Shown here in pieces: positions 38,288 to 52,370 of a stretch of DNA of 64,000 bases. The stretch lies in the IMG/VR virus record IMGVR_UViG_3300045988_156524, one strand, 5' to 3'. Position 1 is the first letter of the stretch. Each line of letters begins with the position of its first letter. This DNA comes from a virus (taxonomy: Duplodnaviria > Heunggongvirae > Uroviricota > Caudoviricetes). A model generated the notes under the pieces. That model was given only the letters and a program-made list of their open reading frames with translations, ran no database searches and had not been told where the DNA came from. A program made the position numbers and the translations under genes.

Positions 38288-38650
38288 TCAGCTTTCGTTG
38301 ACATTTAACTTCGTCTTTGCTTTCTCCACCAGCAACTTCCAGATGCCTATTTCATTAGCAGCCGCCTTGATGGCGGCATAAAAAGCATCTTGCTGATCGT
38401 AACGCTGGATCTGTTTTTTCAGTTTTGCCTCCACCAATTTAATTTCATTACGTGCTTTCTGAAGCCGCATCACCGCCCGGTTACGTCTGTTCTTGTATAG
38501 CGTGTTAATCTCTGACAATTGTTTTAATTTACCAGCCTGACTGCGGATTATCGCCTCCCTGGCTTCTGCCGTGCGTCTCATCTGATCTCTTAAGAGTTCA
38601 CCGTTTTCGATAATTCTTTCAAGGTGTTTGATGTGATCTGCAACTCTCAT
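38288..38650 (-). CDS. Hypothetical coiled-coil protein (120 aa)
   Basis: ORF in tightly packed leftward operon. Confidence 0.45.
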   Translation of the reverse strand: MRVADHIKHLERIIENGELLRDQMRRTAEAREAIIRSQAGKLKQLSEINTLYKNRRNRAVMRLQKARNEIKLVEAKLKKQIQRYDQQDAFYAAIKAAANEIGIWKLLVEKAKTKLNVNES

Positions 38651-39321
38651 ACTTCACCCTCGCTTGTATCACCAGCGTCCACCAACGACAATAAAGCCCT
38701 GGCCATCTTATGAACCAACAGTGCATCAATAATGCCAAGCGTATGCCCCGGCTTAATGTTTAATGCCGCCTCAAGGTGACACCTTTCCAGGTCACTTTTC
38801 TCGGCTTGTTTATGATGATCTGGCGTAATAACGTCGCCCAAAACACGGCTAATTCTTTCTCGTAATTGCTGAGTGCCAGCACACTTGATCGCTGTATCGT
38901 GGAGACGGTTAACCAGTTCGCGATAAACATGCGGCTTAATGCGGATACGTTCACCGGTGACGCCCTTTCCTGGCGCTGGCACCGAACTATCCGGAATATC
39001 CGGATAGTTGCCAGCCTCGTAAGCTACCCGCAGCCAGTGCATGAATGTTTCAGTGGACACACAACCACAGTCCACATCGATTTTCCCGCGTTGCTGTTCC
39101 AGCCACTGCTCAAAATTCAATCTACACGTATTACTTTCATGTTGCTCTTTTTGTCTCAAGGCCAGCACCTGTTGGGCCAGTTCCAGAACGATACCGGGTG
39201 ACGCTAACCTCTCAAATTCCAATAAATAGTTTGCGTCAGGATGACAAGTAGCCTCGCCTGCAAAAAATACCAATTGCTGTAAGTATGCTGTCGTTAGAGT
39301 AGTCATTTCTTTTTGCGCCAT
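38647..39321 (-). CDS. Hypothetical protein (224 aa)
   Basis: ORF overlapping neighbours by 4 nt. Confidence 0.45.
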   Translation of the reverse strand: MAQKEMTTLTTAYLQQLVFFAGEATCHPDANYLLEFERLASPGIVLELAQQVLALRQKEQHESNTCRLNFEQWLEQQRGKIDVDCGCVSTETFMHWLRVAYEAGNYPDIPDSSVPAPGKGVTGERIRIKPHVYRELVNRLHDTAIKCAGTQQLRERISRVLGDVITPDHHKQAEKSDLERCHLEAALNIKPGHTLGIIDALLVHKMARALLSLVDAGDTSEGEV

Positions 39322-39677
39322 TTCTTTTCACATTCCTTAGTCCATTTTTCAATGTTCATTTTGGCAATATCAGTCATTCCATCACCTAAGAAATACTTTT
39401 TCCGGTACGTCTTGCACTTAAACCACACTACAACAGCCACCAGCCAGAAAATAAAAGGCCATACGGCAATACCAACTCCAGCCGCGATAAAGCCCAATAT
39501 CCATAAATGAAGCTCTCCAACTTCTGTTTCCGGCAATATTCTTAAAGAATTAAACAGCAGGCTGAACGAATGGTCGTATGCATTGGCAGTATAAGACATG
39601 CAATCCATATAATTAAAGTCATAGCCTGCGGCTGCCGCCCATAATGGGCGGTCAAGAAAATGTTTTAGTGTCATCAT
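39303..39677 (-). CDS. Hypothetical membrane protein (124 aa)
   Basis: Hydrophobic segment LWILGFIAAGVGIAVWPFIFWLVAVVVWF. Confidence 0.4.
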   Translation of the reverse strand: MMTLKHFLDRPLWAAAAGYDFNYMDCMSYTANAYDHSFSLLFNSLRILPETEVGELHLWILGFIAAGVGIAVWPFIFWLVAVVVWFKCKTYRKKYFLGDGMTDIAKMNIEKWTKECEKKWRKKK

Positions 39678-39683
39678 ATTAAT

Positions 39684-39977
39684 TTAAGGTTCAGACCAGT
39701 TATCTTCAATAGCAATGCTTAATCTTTGTAGCCATTCTGCTAATTTCAGCATTGCTTCTCTTTCGCTTAAACCACACGGAAAATCATCAAGCGATATTGT
39801 TGGCTTGAAGTTTCCCAAATTATCCATTTCAACGGTCAGATTTTGCTCCAGAACGGTATTTCTTACGCGGCTATTGTGCCGAAGCAAATATACTGAACGT
39901 GATTTATTGGTTTTGTGGTCGAACGTATATTCGGTAAGTATCATCTGACTTCCGCCATGATTATTACCGCGCCACAT
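39684..39977 (-). CDS. Hypothetical protein (97 aa)
   Basis: ORF in operon. Confidence 0.4.
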   Translation of the reverse strand: MWRGNNHGGSQMILTEYTFDHKTNKSRSVYLLRHNSRVRNTVLEQNLTVEMDNLGNFKPTISLDDFPCGLSEREAMLKLAEWLQRLSIAIEDNWSEP

Positions 39978-40000
39978 AATTACTCCGTGTTAATTGAAAT

Positions 40001-40303
40001 TTAGCTATTAATCTTCACTTTTATCGCGAACACCTTTACCGGTTTATCACCGAAGTGTGGATGTGTGATTGTTTTTATTTCATATCCGTTATACGGGACG
40101 TCAATTCTGCGACTGAAGTCTTCGCGCTTCGGATATCCCTTTGTGATAATCAGGCGGTAATACTTACGGTTAACGAGGCGCTTATTCCAGTAGTCATTAC
40201 ACAGGCGATACTCTTCCGTTTTCTCCCCGCGAATCATGGCATCGAAGTATTCACCTTTAACGGCAAGTTGCAGGTTAGCCATTACCTCACCTCCAGTCTC
40301 CAT
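40001..40303 (-). CDS. Hypothetical protein (100 aa)
   Basis: ORF in operon. Confidence 0.4.
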   Translation of the reverse strand: METGGEVMANLQLAVKGEYFDAMIRGEKTEEYRLCNDYWNKRLVNRKYYRLIITKGYPKREDFSRRIDVPYNGYEIKTITHPHFGDKPVKVFAIKVKINS

Positions 40304-50194: not shown

Positions 50195-50820
50195 CATGTA
50201 TTCTTCAGCCATTCTTTAAGAGTCATCTGCGGAATACCTCCCATTTTCCCGCATGAAACAACGTCAATCCGTTCACGCGCAGACTGGAATAACAAAGGCA
50301 GGTGACTTAGATTTTTTGGCGTGCCGCCGGAGTGAACGCGTGGTTCTTGTGTAGCGTCAACGCCCACCAGGGCGACATGTTTGAATCCGATATGGAAAGC
50401 CAGGTTCAGAGCACCATATGCACTATTGCCGCTGGCAATTTCATTCTCATCTTCGCAAAGTCCGAAATGTGCGGACCAGCGCCACGCCCACCACTCGGGA
50501 GAATTCGTATTTTTTGGCTCCATGCCACGTTCAGCCACACGACGGAAGCACAGAACGCCGTCTCTGACTTCACGTTCTTTAACATCGGGTAGTGCCATGC
50601 AATAACAAACACCACGGCGACGGCGGCCACGACCAACGCGCCGCATATTGTCTGGCGATGGATCAAGTGTGAAAAAATAAGAAGCGCGGTTCAGCCAGTC
50701 GATGGCCCCATTGACCGCTATAATCGGCACTCCGCGCGGCGCAACAAAGTTTGCGGCGCTTGGGCCACTGCCGACGATAATAACGCGATCACTGCCTCTA
50801 AATTTATTCTTGGGAAACAT
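50194..50820 (-). CDS. Maf/DUF115-like putative glycosyltransferase, paralog 2 (208 aa)
   Basis: [10 protein letters not shown] ... IIAVNGA motifs; overlaps upstream paralog by about 100 nt. Confidence 0.4.
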
Positions 50821-51380
50821 TGAATTGCACTGCTCCTACTTGCATTCAAAATATGTAAATCTGCGTGTTTTTTGCGGGTATCCAGGAACTGCTGTTGCCA
50901 TTTTGAAATAGACACCTGCGTTGGATTCCGTAGGGCTTGAGGGTGCGCGCCATGCCAATGAAGGCCGTTTTGCAGAGAACAGTCATAGCCGACTAATACC
51001 ACTACTTCAGCCCCTGATTCAGCAGCCAGACTGATAGCCTGCGCGCCGCTATTTACCCCTTCCGCCGGTCCACAATATCGCCTGTACTCCAACGAAAATG
51101 ATTTCGCCGCCGCCAGGTTGGCTGTCACTTTGCGGAATCTCCCTCCCGGTATGGTGGATCCGTATTGCTTCCACCATGACAAATCACCGGCGTATAAGGC
51201 ATAAATGTCATCGAACATCTGCCAGGAATTGTTAACCGCGATGATTGAACAGCCAGTTTTTTCTATAGCAGCACAGTCCTCACGAGTGAGTGACGGACCG
51301 CTACCGACACAAAAAACAGTCCTAGTCGCCCTGGGTGGTATGTTCATTCTCAGCTGCAAATTCAGCCTCCAGGCGAGCAT
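50718..51380 (-). CDS. Maf/DUF115-like putative glycosyltransferase, paralog 1 (220 aa)
   Basis: VFCVGSGPSL ... IIAVNNS motifs. Confidence 0.4.
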   Translation of the reverse strand: MLAWRLNLQLRMNIPPRATRTVFCVGSGPSLTREDCAAIEKTGCSIIAVNNSWQMFDDIYALYAGDLSWWKQYGSTIPGGRFRKVTANLAAAKSFSLEYRRYCGPAEGVNSGAQAISLAAESGAEVVVLVGYDCSLQNGLHWHGAHPQALRNPTQVSISKWQQQFLDTRKKHADLHILNASRSSAIQCFPRINLEAVIALLSSAVAQAPQTLLRRAECRL

Positions 51381-51543
51381 TCATTTCAGCGATTACAGGG
51401 TCCACTACAGCATCTGTTTCCTGTTCATTACGCGGCATGACCGATGCCAGCGACTCATAATTAACCTTGGATGACACGATTATTCTCCCGATGTTAAAGT
51501 GCACTACCACAAAGAGCGTAAATGCACTAATTAATTTATTATT

Positions 51544-52122
51544 TTAAGCAGCATACAACCACTTGTCGCCGTTCAATACATGCTCAATAGCCTCACCCTT
51601 TTTAAGGCTTATGTATTCCAGGATGGCGGTTATCGCTTGTTCTGCACCATACGCAAGAACGACGTAGTAACCTTCCTCTCTAAGCCTGCGCATCCAGGCG
51701 ATCTGCTCTTTCGTCGGGGCTTTACCATTTGGTTCTTTAAGCTCAATTCGCATGCCGTGATAAATACCGCATGCTTTATCGAGACTCATGTCCGGATAAC
51801 CTTTTTTCTGCCCTTCAGCCTTCATTTTCCCGGCGGTTGCTTTTGAACGTTTCCCTCCGTTAGGCGTTGCATGCAACAGCTCATAGATGTCAGGGTGCTT
51901 GCGTTCGAAGTAATCAAAAATGAAAACCTGCTCGAAGTGCTCGCAATTTCCGTCGCGCAGGTCTGGGTTCTTTGCAAGTGCTGCAAGTGCCTTCGCATGT
52001 GGAGAAACTTCTTTTACCGGCGCAAGCGATAAGAATGGATCCTTTTTGGTTTTTGGCCTGGACCGCCCCTTATTTCGACGCTCACTAAAAGCCTGAAACT
52101 CTTCCTCAGTAAAGCGCAACAT
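51544..52122 (-). CDS. VRR-NUC domain nuclease-like protein (192 aa)
   Basis: KKGYPDMSL...GMRIELKEPNG...Q pattern typical of VRR-NUC. Confidence 0.55.
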   Translation of the reverse strand: MLRFTEEEFQAFSERRNKGRSRPKTKKDPFLSLAPVKEVSPHAKALAALAKNPDLRDGNCEHFEQVFIFDYFERKHPDIYELLHATPNGGKRSKATAGKMKAEGQKKGYPDMSLDKACGIYHGMRIELKEPNGKAPTKEQIAWMRRLREEGYYVVLAYGAEQAITAILEYISLKKGEAIEHVLNGDKWLYAA

Positions 52123-52124
52123 AA

Positions 52125-52370
52125 TCAGTCAAATCCTGCCGGTCGCATGCCATATTTACGCTGTTTTGCGGCCTGCTCTTCCCTGTGCCATTGCGCACAT
52201 TCAGCGTCACAATAAATGCCTGATTCAATCGATTCATTGCAGTAACGACACTTCCCTGTAAATACCTGGCTCACGACCTGTGCCTGCTTTCTGATGTTAT
52301 CGATGGCCATGTCTTTGAGAGCTTCTAACTGATTCATGCTCAGCTCTGCATCATCAACACGTTCTGCCAA
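52125..52370 (-). CDS. TraR/DksA-type C4 zinc-finger protein (81 aa)
   Basis: CRYCNESIE...YCDAEC four-Cys motif. Confidence 0.55.
   Translation of the reverse strand: MAERVDDAELSMNQLEALKDMAIDNIRKQAQVVSQVFTGKCRYCNESIESGIYCDAECAQWHREEQAAKQRKYGMRPAGFD

Follow-up and report, generated by a model that had tools for sequence, protein, structure and literature searches.

The block examined here occupies positions 38288–52370 of the window, that is, of the whole 64,000-nt stretch of DNA analysed (IMG/VR virus record IMGVR_UViG_3300045988_156524, Caudoviricetes). It runs exactly from the stop codon of pmgV to the TTG start codon of pmgL with all genes pointing leftward, and comparison with sequenced relatives identifies it as the pmgL→pmgV region of a P1-like IncY phage-plasmid. 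Gene order (pmgL, pmgM, pmgN, pmgO, pmgP, ppp, pmgQ, pmgR, pmgS, pap, the pmgT/pmgU region and pmgV in the P1 record; P1_gp085–gp097), strand and C1 operators are all as in P1. DNA identity to P1 was 98.8% over 45789–55370, which includes pmgL–pap, and 94.6% over pmgV (blastn); reference P1 covers just 52% of the block, as two pieces, and the Klebsiella IncY plasmid NZ_LR890206 is 99.9% identical to window positions 38679–52370. In all, roughly 1,400 plasmids gave matches. The block is not new. It has long been annotated in P1 under the pmg names, and the literature knows it as ‘variable region 8’, the name under which the slot from pmgT to humD was described as highly variable in P1-like phage-plasmids (PMC9603915). 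We consider it likely that the whole serves the lytic cycle as an accessory region under C1 control, in which a fixed backbone is joined to a recombinational cargo slot that draws on the lambdoid gene pool. Its anatomy, conservation pattern, mosaic origin and domain assignments were demonstrated in the comparisons described below.

An initial annotation, made from the sequence of the window, had described a tightly packed leftward block of about 30 small genes in 14 kb, often overlapping by ATGA. The counts bear this out: 31 minus-strand open reading frames (ORFs), of which 29 are convincing, have a median length of ~120 amino acids (aa) and leave 97.5% of the 14,083 bp coding, and 18 of the 30 junctions overlap (nine as ATGA, two as GTGA, two as TAATG and five by longer stretches). 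GC skew is negative across the block, in line with the leftward genes. The paralog pairs noted earlier are also real (g07/g11, g14/g16, g13/g16 and pmgO/pmgP). The small membrane proteins reduce to g03, with a hydrophobic segment at residues 53–89, and perhaps g21, with no others looking membrane-embedded. For 23 of the 31 ORFs no Pfam match exceeded the curated cut-off, and NCBIfam searches of 10 proteins returned just sub-threshold coiled-coil matches to PmgS. The following ORFs are doubtful:

41777–41953, minus strand: g10, with a PHROG match and a ratio of non-synonymous to synonymous polymorphism (pN/pS) of ~0.95 across 13 alleles
46494–46628, minus strand: g21, a 44-aa hydrophobic ORF that overlaps a hairpin

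The RefSeq record of the twin plasmid leaves g10 unannotated; despite its PHROG match, this ORF is probably spurious.

To follow the block through its family, loci were collected with PmgS as bait and 10-kb flanks (80 IMG/VR and 2 GTDB loci). The conserved backbone, pmgL–pap (46679–52370), consists of the following genes:

52125–52370, minus strand: pmgL (g31), 81 aa, four-cysteine zinc ribbon, possibly DksA/TraR-like
51544–52122, minus strand: pmgM (g30), VRR-NUC nuclease (PDB 4qbl, E 3.5e-17)
51322–51477, minus strand: pmgN (g29), 51-aa ORF (PHROG_2350; pN/pS 0.53)
50718–51380, minus strand: pmgO (g28), transferase of the Maf/GT42/MptE fold
50194–50820, minus strand: pmgP (g27), distant pmgO paralogue (Pfam MptE-like, E 3e-4)
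49520–50212, minus strand: ppp (g26), lambda-type Ser/Thr protein phosphatase
48822–49523, minus strand: pmgQ (g25), GT-A-type glycosyltransferase-like protein with a DLD motif
48522–48740, minus strand: pmgR (g24), 72 aa, 94–100% aa identity in all loci
47258–48520, minus strand: pmgS (g23), 420-aa coiled-coil protein (PHROG_1660)
46679–47185, minus strand: pap (g22), HAD phosphatase of the polynucleotide kinase-phosphatase type

These 5.7 kb were 91–100% identical at the aa level in every locus reaching them (~80 P1-like loci); PmgS was 98–100% identical in all 82 loci, pmgL 97–100% in all loci reaching it (pN/pS 0.08), and pmgM was universal in the family. The VRR-NUC nuclease-like protein of the initial annotation is PmgM, which, besides its PDB match, carries the catalytic motif ‘YPDMS...IELK’, scored 21.2 bits with Pfam VRR_NUC, just under the cut-off of 23.8, and matched PHROG_5702 (‘Holliday junction resolvase’). 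Likewise, the predicted lambda-type Ser/Thr phosphatase is Ppp (PDB 1g5b, E 1.5e-94 over residues 11–229; Pfam Metallophos, 59.3 bits against a cut-off of 21.5), and the HAD-type phosphatase is Pap, which lacks a kinase domain and showed a Pfam HAD_PNKP (PF25109) score of 44.1 bits against a cut-off of 27.6, a PHROG_415 match and the motif I sequence DIDGT. The proposed TraR/DksA zinc finger is a weak assignment with one supporting match: PmgL matched PHROG_54 (‘DksA-like zinc-finger protein’) over nearly its full length (E 1.6e-12), but gave no Pfam zf-dskA_traR match at E ≤ 10 and no BLASTP alignment to an approximate F-plasmid TraR sequence. Its cysteines are spaced CxxC-x9-CxxxC, and those of zf-dskA_traR CxxC-x17-CxxC; the PmgL homologue set was too shallow and too rich in frameshifted variants to give a useful profile.

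Published P1 genetics covers much of this backbone. The ΔpmgR mutant accumulates unjoined heads and tails (PMC9024508), and pmgR is the sole gene of the block with an established housekeeping role, in morphogenesis (head completion). CRISPR interference (CRISPRi) found all genes from pmgL to pmgV non-essential, pmgS among them, except pmgN, which is essential by CRISPRi and non-essential by deletion (PMC10695390). In a set of 29 single-gene P1 knockouts, 24 plaque normally and leave antirestriction on EcoK, EcoA and EcoB hosts unchanged (PMC9024508); the normally plaquing knockouts include the backbone genes other than pmgR, according to the table in PMC10695390.

Downstream of pap the block carries cargo, listed here in the direction of transcription:

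45759–46484, minus strand: g20, 241 aa, first cassette gene, full-length form of P1 ‘PmgT’, weakly ASCH-like
45528–45749, minus strand: g19, homologue of lambda Orf63 (DUF1382), 75% identity (PDB 8dsb, E 1.6e-23; Pfam DUF1382)
44679–45531, minus strand: g18 (71 aa) and g17 (214 aa, C-terminal cysteine-rich ribbon), with matches to PHROG_9799 and PHROG_2457
42523–44691, minus strand: g16 (Ead/Ea22-like), g15 (DUF4752), g14 (related to g16) and g13 (Ead/Ea22-like)
41592–42554, minus strand: g12, g11, the doubtful g10 and g09, with PHROG matches; g11 has the N-terminal module of g07
41075–41590, minus strand: g08, probable protein of the PD-(D/E)xK nuclease fold
39684–41078, minus strand: g07 (DUF551), g06, g05 (ASCH-like, 93 aa) and g04, with PHROG matches
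38288–39677, minus strand: g03 (membrane), g02 and pmgV, the semi-conserved 3′ end of the cassette operon

The slot itself (38647–46484, downstream of the operator Op88) was surveyed in the 52 loci with at least 8.6 kb of sequence beyond pap. It held an ‘ea-type’ cassette in 36, a type I restriction-modification (R-M) system in 15 and an invasin-like gene in one. Comparison of gene content across P1-like loci, which the initial annotation had suggested as a way to find variable cassettes, showed the distal half of the block to be hypervariable: the 36 ea-type cassettes displayed 34 distinct presence/absence patterns of the window’s genes. The ends of the cassette are semi-conserved and its middle is hypervariable, with g04-g03-g02 present in 24–31 of the 36 (g03 in 31, g02 in 24), pmgV in 16 and g17 in 19 (pN/pS 0.21); g20 occurs as two allelic types, at ≥80% identity in 21 cassettes and at 44–49% in others. 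With only pmgR assigned a housekeeping role and 19–20 genes not conserved in the family, the block is not a set of universally conserved housekeeping genes.

The R-M occupant is a complete hsdR/hsdS/hsdM set lying on the opposite strand between pap/Op88 and phd (12109–18099 in L005; also in L006, L008, L017, L025–L028, L033, L037, L049, L061, L062, L072 and L082). It replaces everything from g20 on, pmgV included, and usually humD as well; hot and humD are retained in L008 and L061. The invasin/intimin-like protein, of 1,211 aa with many Ig-like repeats, fills the slot of L013 (12537–16172), and a 618-aa membrane acyltransferase-like protein that of L077 (12586–14442), a locus outside the 52 because its pap was only partly detected. 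Such a fixed site with interchangeable cargo, including complete type I R-M systems, resembles the accessory or moron hotspots of temperate phages. The cargo of the window differs from theirs in consisting of small, predicted repressor-controlled lytic-cycle genes with no recognised defence system. The variability of the slot also fits published work in which about 30% of P1-like genes had recently moved between these elements and other mobile ones (PMC10879196).

Read against the window, reference P1 appears to have arisen by deletion at this slot. P1 lacks 39023–45788 (6,766 bp), namely the 3′ end of g20, g19 through g03 and the 5′ half of g02 (blastn and joint sequence), all carried by the window. 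The joint, with 1–2 bp of microhomology, reads …CCTCGTAA/CCCAGGG… (the slash falling at 3734/3735 of the P1 locus L002) and, among the loci compared, occurs only in P1, L040 and L046. In P1 PmgT, residues 1–232 of g20 are continued by a tail that g02 DNA encodes out of frame, and residues 113–224 of g02, its C-terminal 112 aa, make up P1 PmgU. Since P1 is missing these 6,766 bp of cassette, its pmgT and pmgU would both be products of a deletion joint. The distance from pap to humD is the shortest in P1 (3.3 kb, against 4.3–9.2 kb elsewhere).

The same 6,766-bp core pointed to the origin of the cargo. Short patches of 80–99% identity to it are scattered over ~600 phage records, mostly of Shiga toxin (Stx)-converting, lambdoid and P22-like phages, with each record covering at most ~20% of the core except for the P1-like MH422554 (66%). 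Lys8385Vzw, a lambdoid phage, has the shared genes between integrase and repressor. Pfam matches above cut-off were obtained for g13 and g16 (Ead_Ea22), g15 (DUF4752) and g19 (DUF1382), and the N-terminal part of g13 shares 57% identity with lambda Ea22. Judged by these patches and families, the cargo is a patchwork of lambdoid, Stx-phage and P22 ‘ea / exo-xis’ genes. It shares with the exo-xis region of lambda and Stx phages and with the P22 ‘ea’ genes the Orf63 and Ea22 homologues, the DUF551, DUF4752 and ASCH-like small genes, the ATGA-coupled packing and, as predicted here, control by the immunity repressor. It differs from them in its P1 backbone (a myovirus with a plasmid prophage), in its apparent control by C1 rather than CI/pL, and in its location between pap and pmgV, with no int/xis or exo/bet flanks.

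The DUF551-like proteins of the initial annotation come down to g07 (Pfam PF04448 at residues 118–176, E 2e-10, 41.7 bits against a cut-off of 22); g02 and g11 share only its N-terminal module and have no DUF551 domain. ASCH matches were weak (E 0.18 for g20 and 0.08 for g05, a homologue of which is named ‘ASCH domain-containing protein’ in RefSeq). The PD-(D/E)xK-like protein is g08, in which E37, D40, E53 and K55 are invariant in 32 homologues, and whose AlphaFold2 model (pLDDT 82.5) found Hjc, R2 RLE endonuclease, AF1548 and Bax1 as top Foldseek matches. All of these are PD-(D/E)xK nucleases, though each matched at E ≥ 0.019, and no family matched in Pfam or NCBIfam; a PD-(D/E)xK nuclease fold is probable for the modelled g08. 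This gene has 325 homologues across Enterobacterales and a pN/pS of 0.07. Direct repeats, given as 89% identical, link the 5′ ends of g07 and g11 (44 nt; 40936–40979 and 42191–42234) and the shared 3′ ends of g14 and g16 (27 nt; 42963–42989 and 43981–44007); they are plausible recombination joints for cassette shuffling. Pooled pN/pS was 0.06–0.35 in nearly all block genes and 0.07–0.35 in g02–g09, g12, g14–g18 and g20, indicating that nearly all cassette genes with enough substitutions are maintained as coding sequences.

The P1 C1-operator consensus matched the window 15 times, against a chance expectation of 0.37, and five of the matches fall in the block at positions annotated in P1 (Op82, Op83, Op86a/b and Op88). 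The control elements are:

52428–52444, plus strand: Op82 (O26), divergent control region of pmgL and gene 26, P1-equivalent site with 2 mismatches to the consensus
equivalent of 52459–52477: late promoter LPpmgL of the P1 annotation, at the head of the block
51521–51537, plus strand: Op83 (Oppp), heading pmgN-pmgO-pmgP-ppp-pmgQ
48804–48820: Op86a, heading pmgR-pmgS
48755–48771: Op86b, heading pmgR-pmgS
48755–48820: Op86b/Op86a with the PpmgR promoter region
46663–46679, minus strand: Op88 (OpmgT), head of the cargo operon, 1 mismatch to the consensus
46635–46679, minus strand: Op88 with promoters P1pmgT and P2pmgT
47210–47238, minus strand: terminator-like hairpin between pmgS and pap, an 11-bp stem followed by a T run
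46608–46630, plus strand: strong terminator-like hairpin lying between Op88 and g20; all relatives conserve the surrounding segment

The Op86/PpmgR and Op88/PpmgT regions are identical to P1 base for base, and the other two control regions differ by 1–2 substitutions (2 at Op82). Given operators at the P1 positions and near-identical control regions, the block is predicted to comprise serial units under C1 repression that stay silent in the prophage and are turned on during lytic growth. The initial annotation had taken it for an early region. The C1 operators are consistent with a lytic switch-on, but early expression would be only part of the picture, because P1 annotates the late promoter LPpmgL at the head of the block. 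The segment 46494–46630 is also kept in R-M-bearing relatives, where it lies just past the 3′ end of the convergent hsdR, and the hairpin at 46608–46630 may accordingly be an hsdR terminator or a bidirectional one. Within the block a consensus scan found 11 promoter-like sites, against 23 in shuffled sequence.

Within the backbone, pmgO, pmgP and pmgQ form a collinear triad that was recovered outside P1. PmgO and PmgP share the PF01973-type fold with an N-terminal GxGPS nucleotide-binding motif; the true start of pmgO is probably M12 at 51347. As in the Maf flagellin glycosyltransferases, GT42 sialyltransferases, WaaZ and MptE, the motif (GSGPS) is accompanied by conserved histidines, whereas PmgO and PmgP differ from those relatives in being stand-alone domains of ~200 aa that score under the Pfam gathering cut-off. 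The reaction could be either glycosyl or pyrophosphoryl transfer. PmgP is 44% identical to the N-terminus of WaaZ (E. coli KdoIII transferase) over 36 aa, and hhalign of the PmgO family against WaaZ gave a probability of 8.6%; the collinear likeness of PmgO/PmgP to WaaZ is weak and may serve as a lead only. PmgQ matched PHROG_1962 (‘glycosyltransferase’, E 2.5e-128) and, weakly, PDB 6mw5; single-sequence PDB searches were uninformative for g08, g20, PmgO, PmgQ and PmgL.

A natural PmgO::PmgP fusion of 376 aa (P0051) lies just after the lysis genes of a podovirus-like contig, followed by a homologue of PmgQ (40% identity) and by a further GT-A-like gene. It was spotted through an hhalign alignment of PmgP to fusion-specific columns that at first looked like an artefact, and PmgP aligns to both of its halves. 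Such a fusion would predict that PmgO and PmgP form a complex. The triad also occurs in lambdoid prophages, between the Rz gene and terminase, and in one 248-kb contig. Its coordinates are 48822–51380 in the window, 7001–9335 in L087, 5001–6785 in L089 and 5001–8438 in L093. In the non-P1 backgrounds ppp was never found inside it, indicating that ppp is not an integral part of the triad. Taken together, pmgO-pmgP-pmgQ appears to be a portable glycosyltransferase-like module common to unrelated phages and apparently undescribed so far. A bolder reading, which we regard as speculative and doubtful, would have two Maf/GT42/WaaZ-like transferases, possibly acting on ulosonic acids such as Kdo, together with the GT-A protein, modify the lipopolysaccharide core, the virion or host proteins during lytic growth, with the Op88 slot as a reservoir of undiscovered host-modulating or counter-defence genes.

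Other differences from P1 lie outside the block. The window lacks a counterpart of hot, the P1 gene for a homologue of DNA polymerase III theta; in place of the P1 hot region, 36839–37666 holds unrelated DNA with a 118-aa ORF (36856–37212, plus strand) and ~450 bp without a long ORF. An IS10-type element at 23239–24509, just downstream of a 2,255-aa darB-like ORF (15321–22088), comprises RNA-OUT (Rfam, 97 bits; 23239–23308, minus strand) and a 402-aa transposase ORF (23301–24509, plus strand). A fourth tRNA gene, tRNA-Tyr(GTA) at 62193–62279 (minus strand; low Rfam score of 35 bits), lies between tRNA-Thr and tRNA-Asn; the P1-like phage SJ46 is reported to have three tRNA genes only, Asn, Thr and Met (PMC5241659).

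For regulation and for all cellular functions we infer the following scheme. The consecutive leftward units, each headed by a C1 operator, would be shut down in the plasmid prophage and active following induction or infection, with the late promoter at the head of the block adding late expression; the slot from g20 to g02, together with pmgV, would depend on the last C1-controlled promoter (Op88/PpmgT). Its ~19 small genes from the lambdoid pool would have come together as lambdoid prophages resident in the same cell recombined homologously with the element at short module boundaries present in both. The genes would be lytic-cycle accessories, kept by purifying selection and dispensable in laboratory hosts, and their products would most likely adjust host physiology and the course of lysis-lysogeny or induction, while some may counter host barriers. 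Lambda Orf63 has been described as pro-lytic and Ea22 as pro-lysogenic (PMC10869804, PMC7093339). Several points weigh against this scheme. The developmental-modulator function would be extrapolated from just those two lambda homologues, and a transfer from lambdoid phages to the P1-like element is suggested by abundance, not by phylogeny. The C1 control and late promoter are carried over from the P1 annotation; internal cassette promoters may exist, although the consensus scan showed no enrichment. The pN/pS values were pooled over non-independent pairs, and PHROGs, Pfam and NCBIfam allowed no function to be assigned to most block proteins.

The initial annotation had expected a host-takeover or anti-defence region, and the corresponding rival, a block that is primarily a counter-defence island inactivating host immunity early in infection (anti-restriction, anti-abortive-infection), strikes us as unlikely. 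It would fit a block that is predicted to be C1-repressed and is dispensable in K-12 laboratory hosts with few defences (PMC10695390). It would also fit the hypervariable gene content at a fixed locus (34 patterns in 36 cassettes downstream of Op88, where expression would be early), and nucleases, phosphatases and small proteins of no assigned role under purifying selection. Pap, moreover, is similar to the phosphatase domain of RNA-repair enzymes of the polynucleotide kinase-phosphatase type, and some relatives carry type I R-M in the slot. Nevertheless, scans of PHROGs, Pfam, NCBIfam and PDB found no homologue of a known defence or validated counter-defence protein, no dedicated anti-defence hidden Markov model library being used, and no paper was found tying DUF551, DUF4752 or DUF1382 to anti-defence. 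Dar, the known counter-defence system of P1, has its genes outside the block and is carried in the virion, and the only studied homologues, those of lambda, are reported to act on lysis-lysogeny (PMC7093339, PMC10869804). The normally plaquing P1 knockouts leave EcoK/A/B antirestriction as it is (PMC9024508); as the sole experimental tests, on type I R-M, they were negative for the backbone, and with no positive evidence found the anti-defence reading stays a generic hypothesis.

The cassette might instead be cargo expressed by the prophage to the benefit of the host cell (lysogenic conversion or defence), like the R-M system at the slot. Variable slots of temperate phages often hold defence systems, and here relatives carry type I R-M (15 of 52), an invasin-like adhesin or an acyltransferase. 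We nonetheless find this very improbable: the cassette is co-oriented with, and directly downstream of, a predicted C1-repressed promoter, whereas the R-M occupant has the opposite orientation; promoter-like sites are not enriched; the lambdoid homologues sit in the early-left operon; and PADLOC matched none of 7 cassette proteins, on which ground the cassette was rejected as a defence system. The original P1 annotation, which gave the pmg genes their name as morphogenetic genes for head structure and processing, fares marginally worse still. The block does adjoin the tail and baseplate genes 26, 25 and 7, has a late promoter at its head, and shares pmgO/P/Q with the late regions of lambdoid prophages and a podovirus-like contig, by the lysis genes (in lambdoid prophages also by terminase). 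But backbone genes other than pmgR can be deleted or knocked down with plaques intact, pmgN being an exception by CRISPRi only (PMC9024508; PMC10695390), the label ‘head structure and processing’ is unsupported according to the authors of the knockout study (PMC9024508), and cassette genes are missing from many functional relatives; on the published knockouts this reading was rejected, being largely refuted for every gene but pmgR. Least likely, by a small margin, is that the cassette is functionless hitch-hiking DNA left by recombination with lambdoid prophages, despite its extreme mosaicism (34 patterns at 36 loci), the apparently harmless loss of 6.8 kb of it by reference P1 and the lack of protein-level constraint on g10. 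Coding is dense and junctions are translationally coupled, g08 keeps invariant catalytic-type residues across its many Enterobacterales homologues, and junk DNA was rejected on the pN/pS values.

The preferred reading, a C1-controlled accessory region with a lambdoid cargo slot, bears on a phage that has been a workhorse of bacterial genetics and whose P1-like phage-plasmid relatives spread resistance genes, while pmgL–pmgV, ~15% of the genome, has no assigned role. The apparent P1 deletion at the slot, the reshuffled and putatively C1-controlled lambdoid cassette and the apparently portable pmgO/P/Q module would offer handles on this unassigned region of P1. The parts most worth following up are the reading of P1 pmgT/pmgU as a deletion joint and the candidate portable PmgO/P/Q module.

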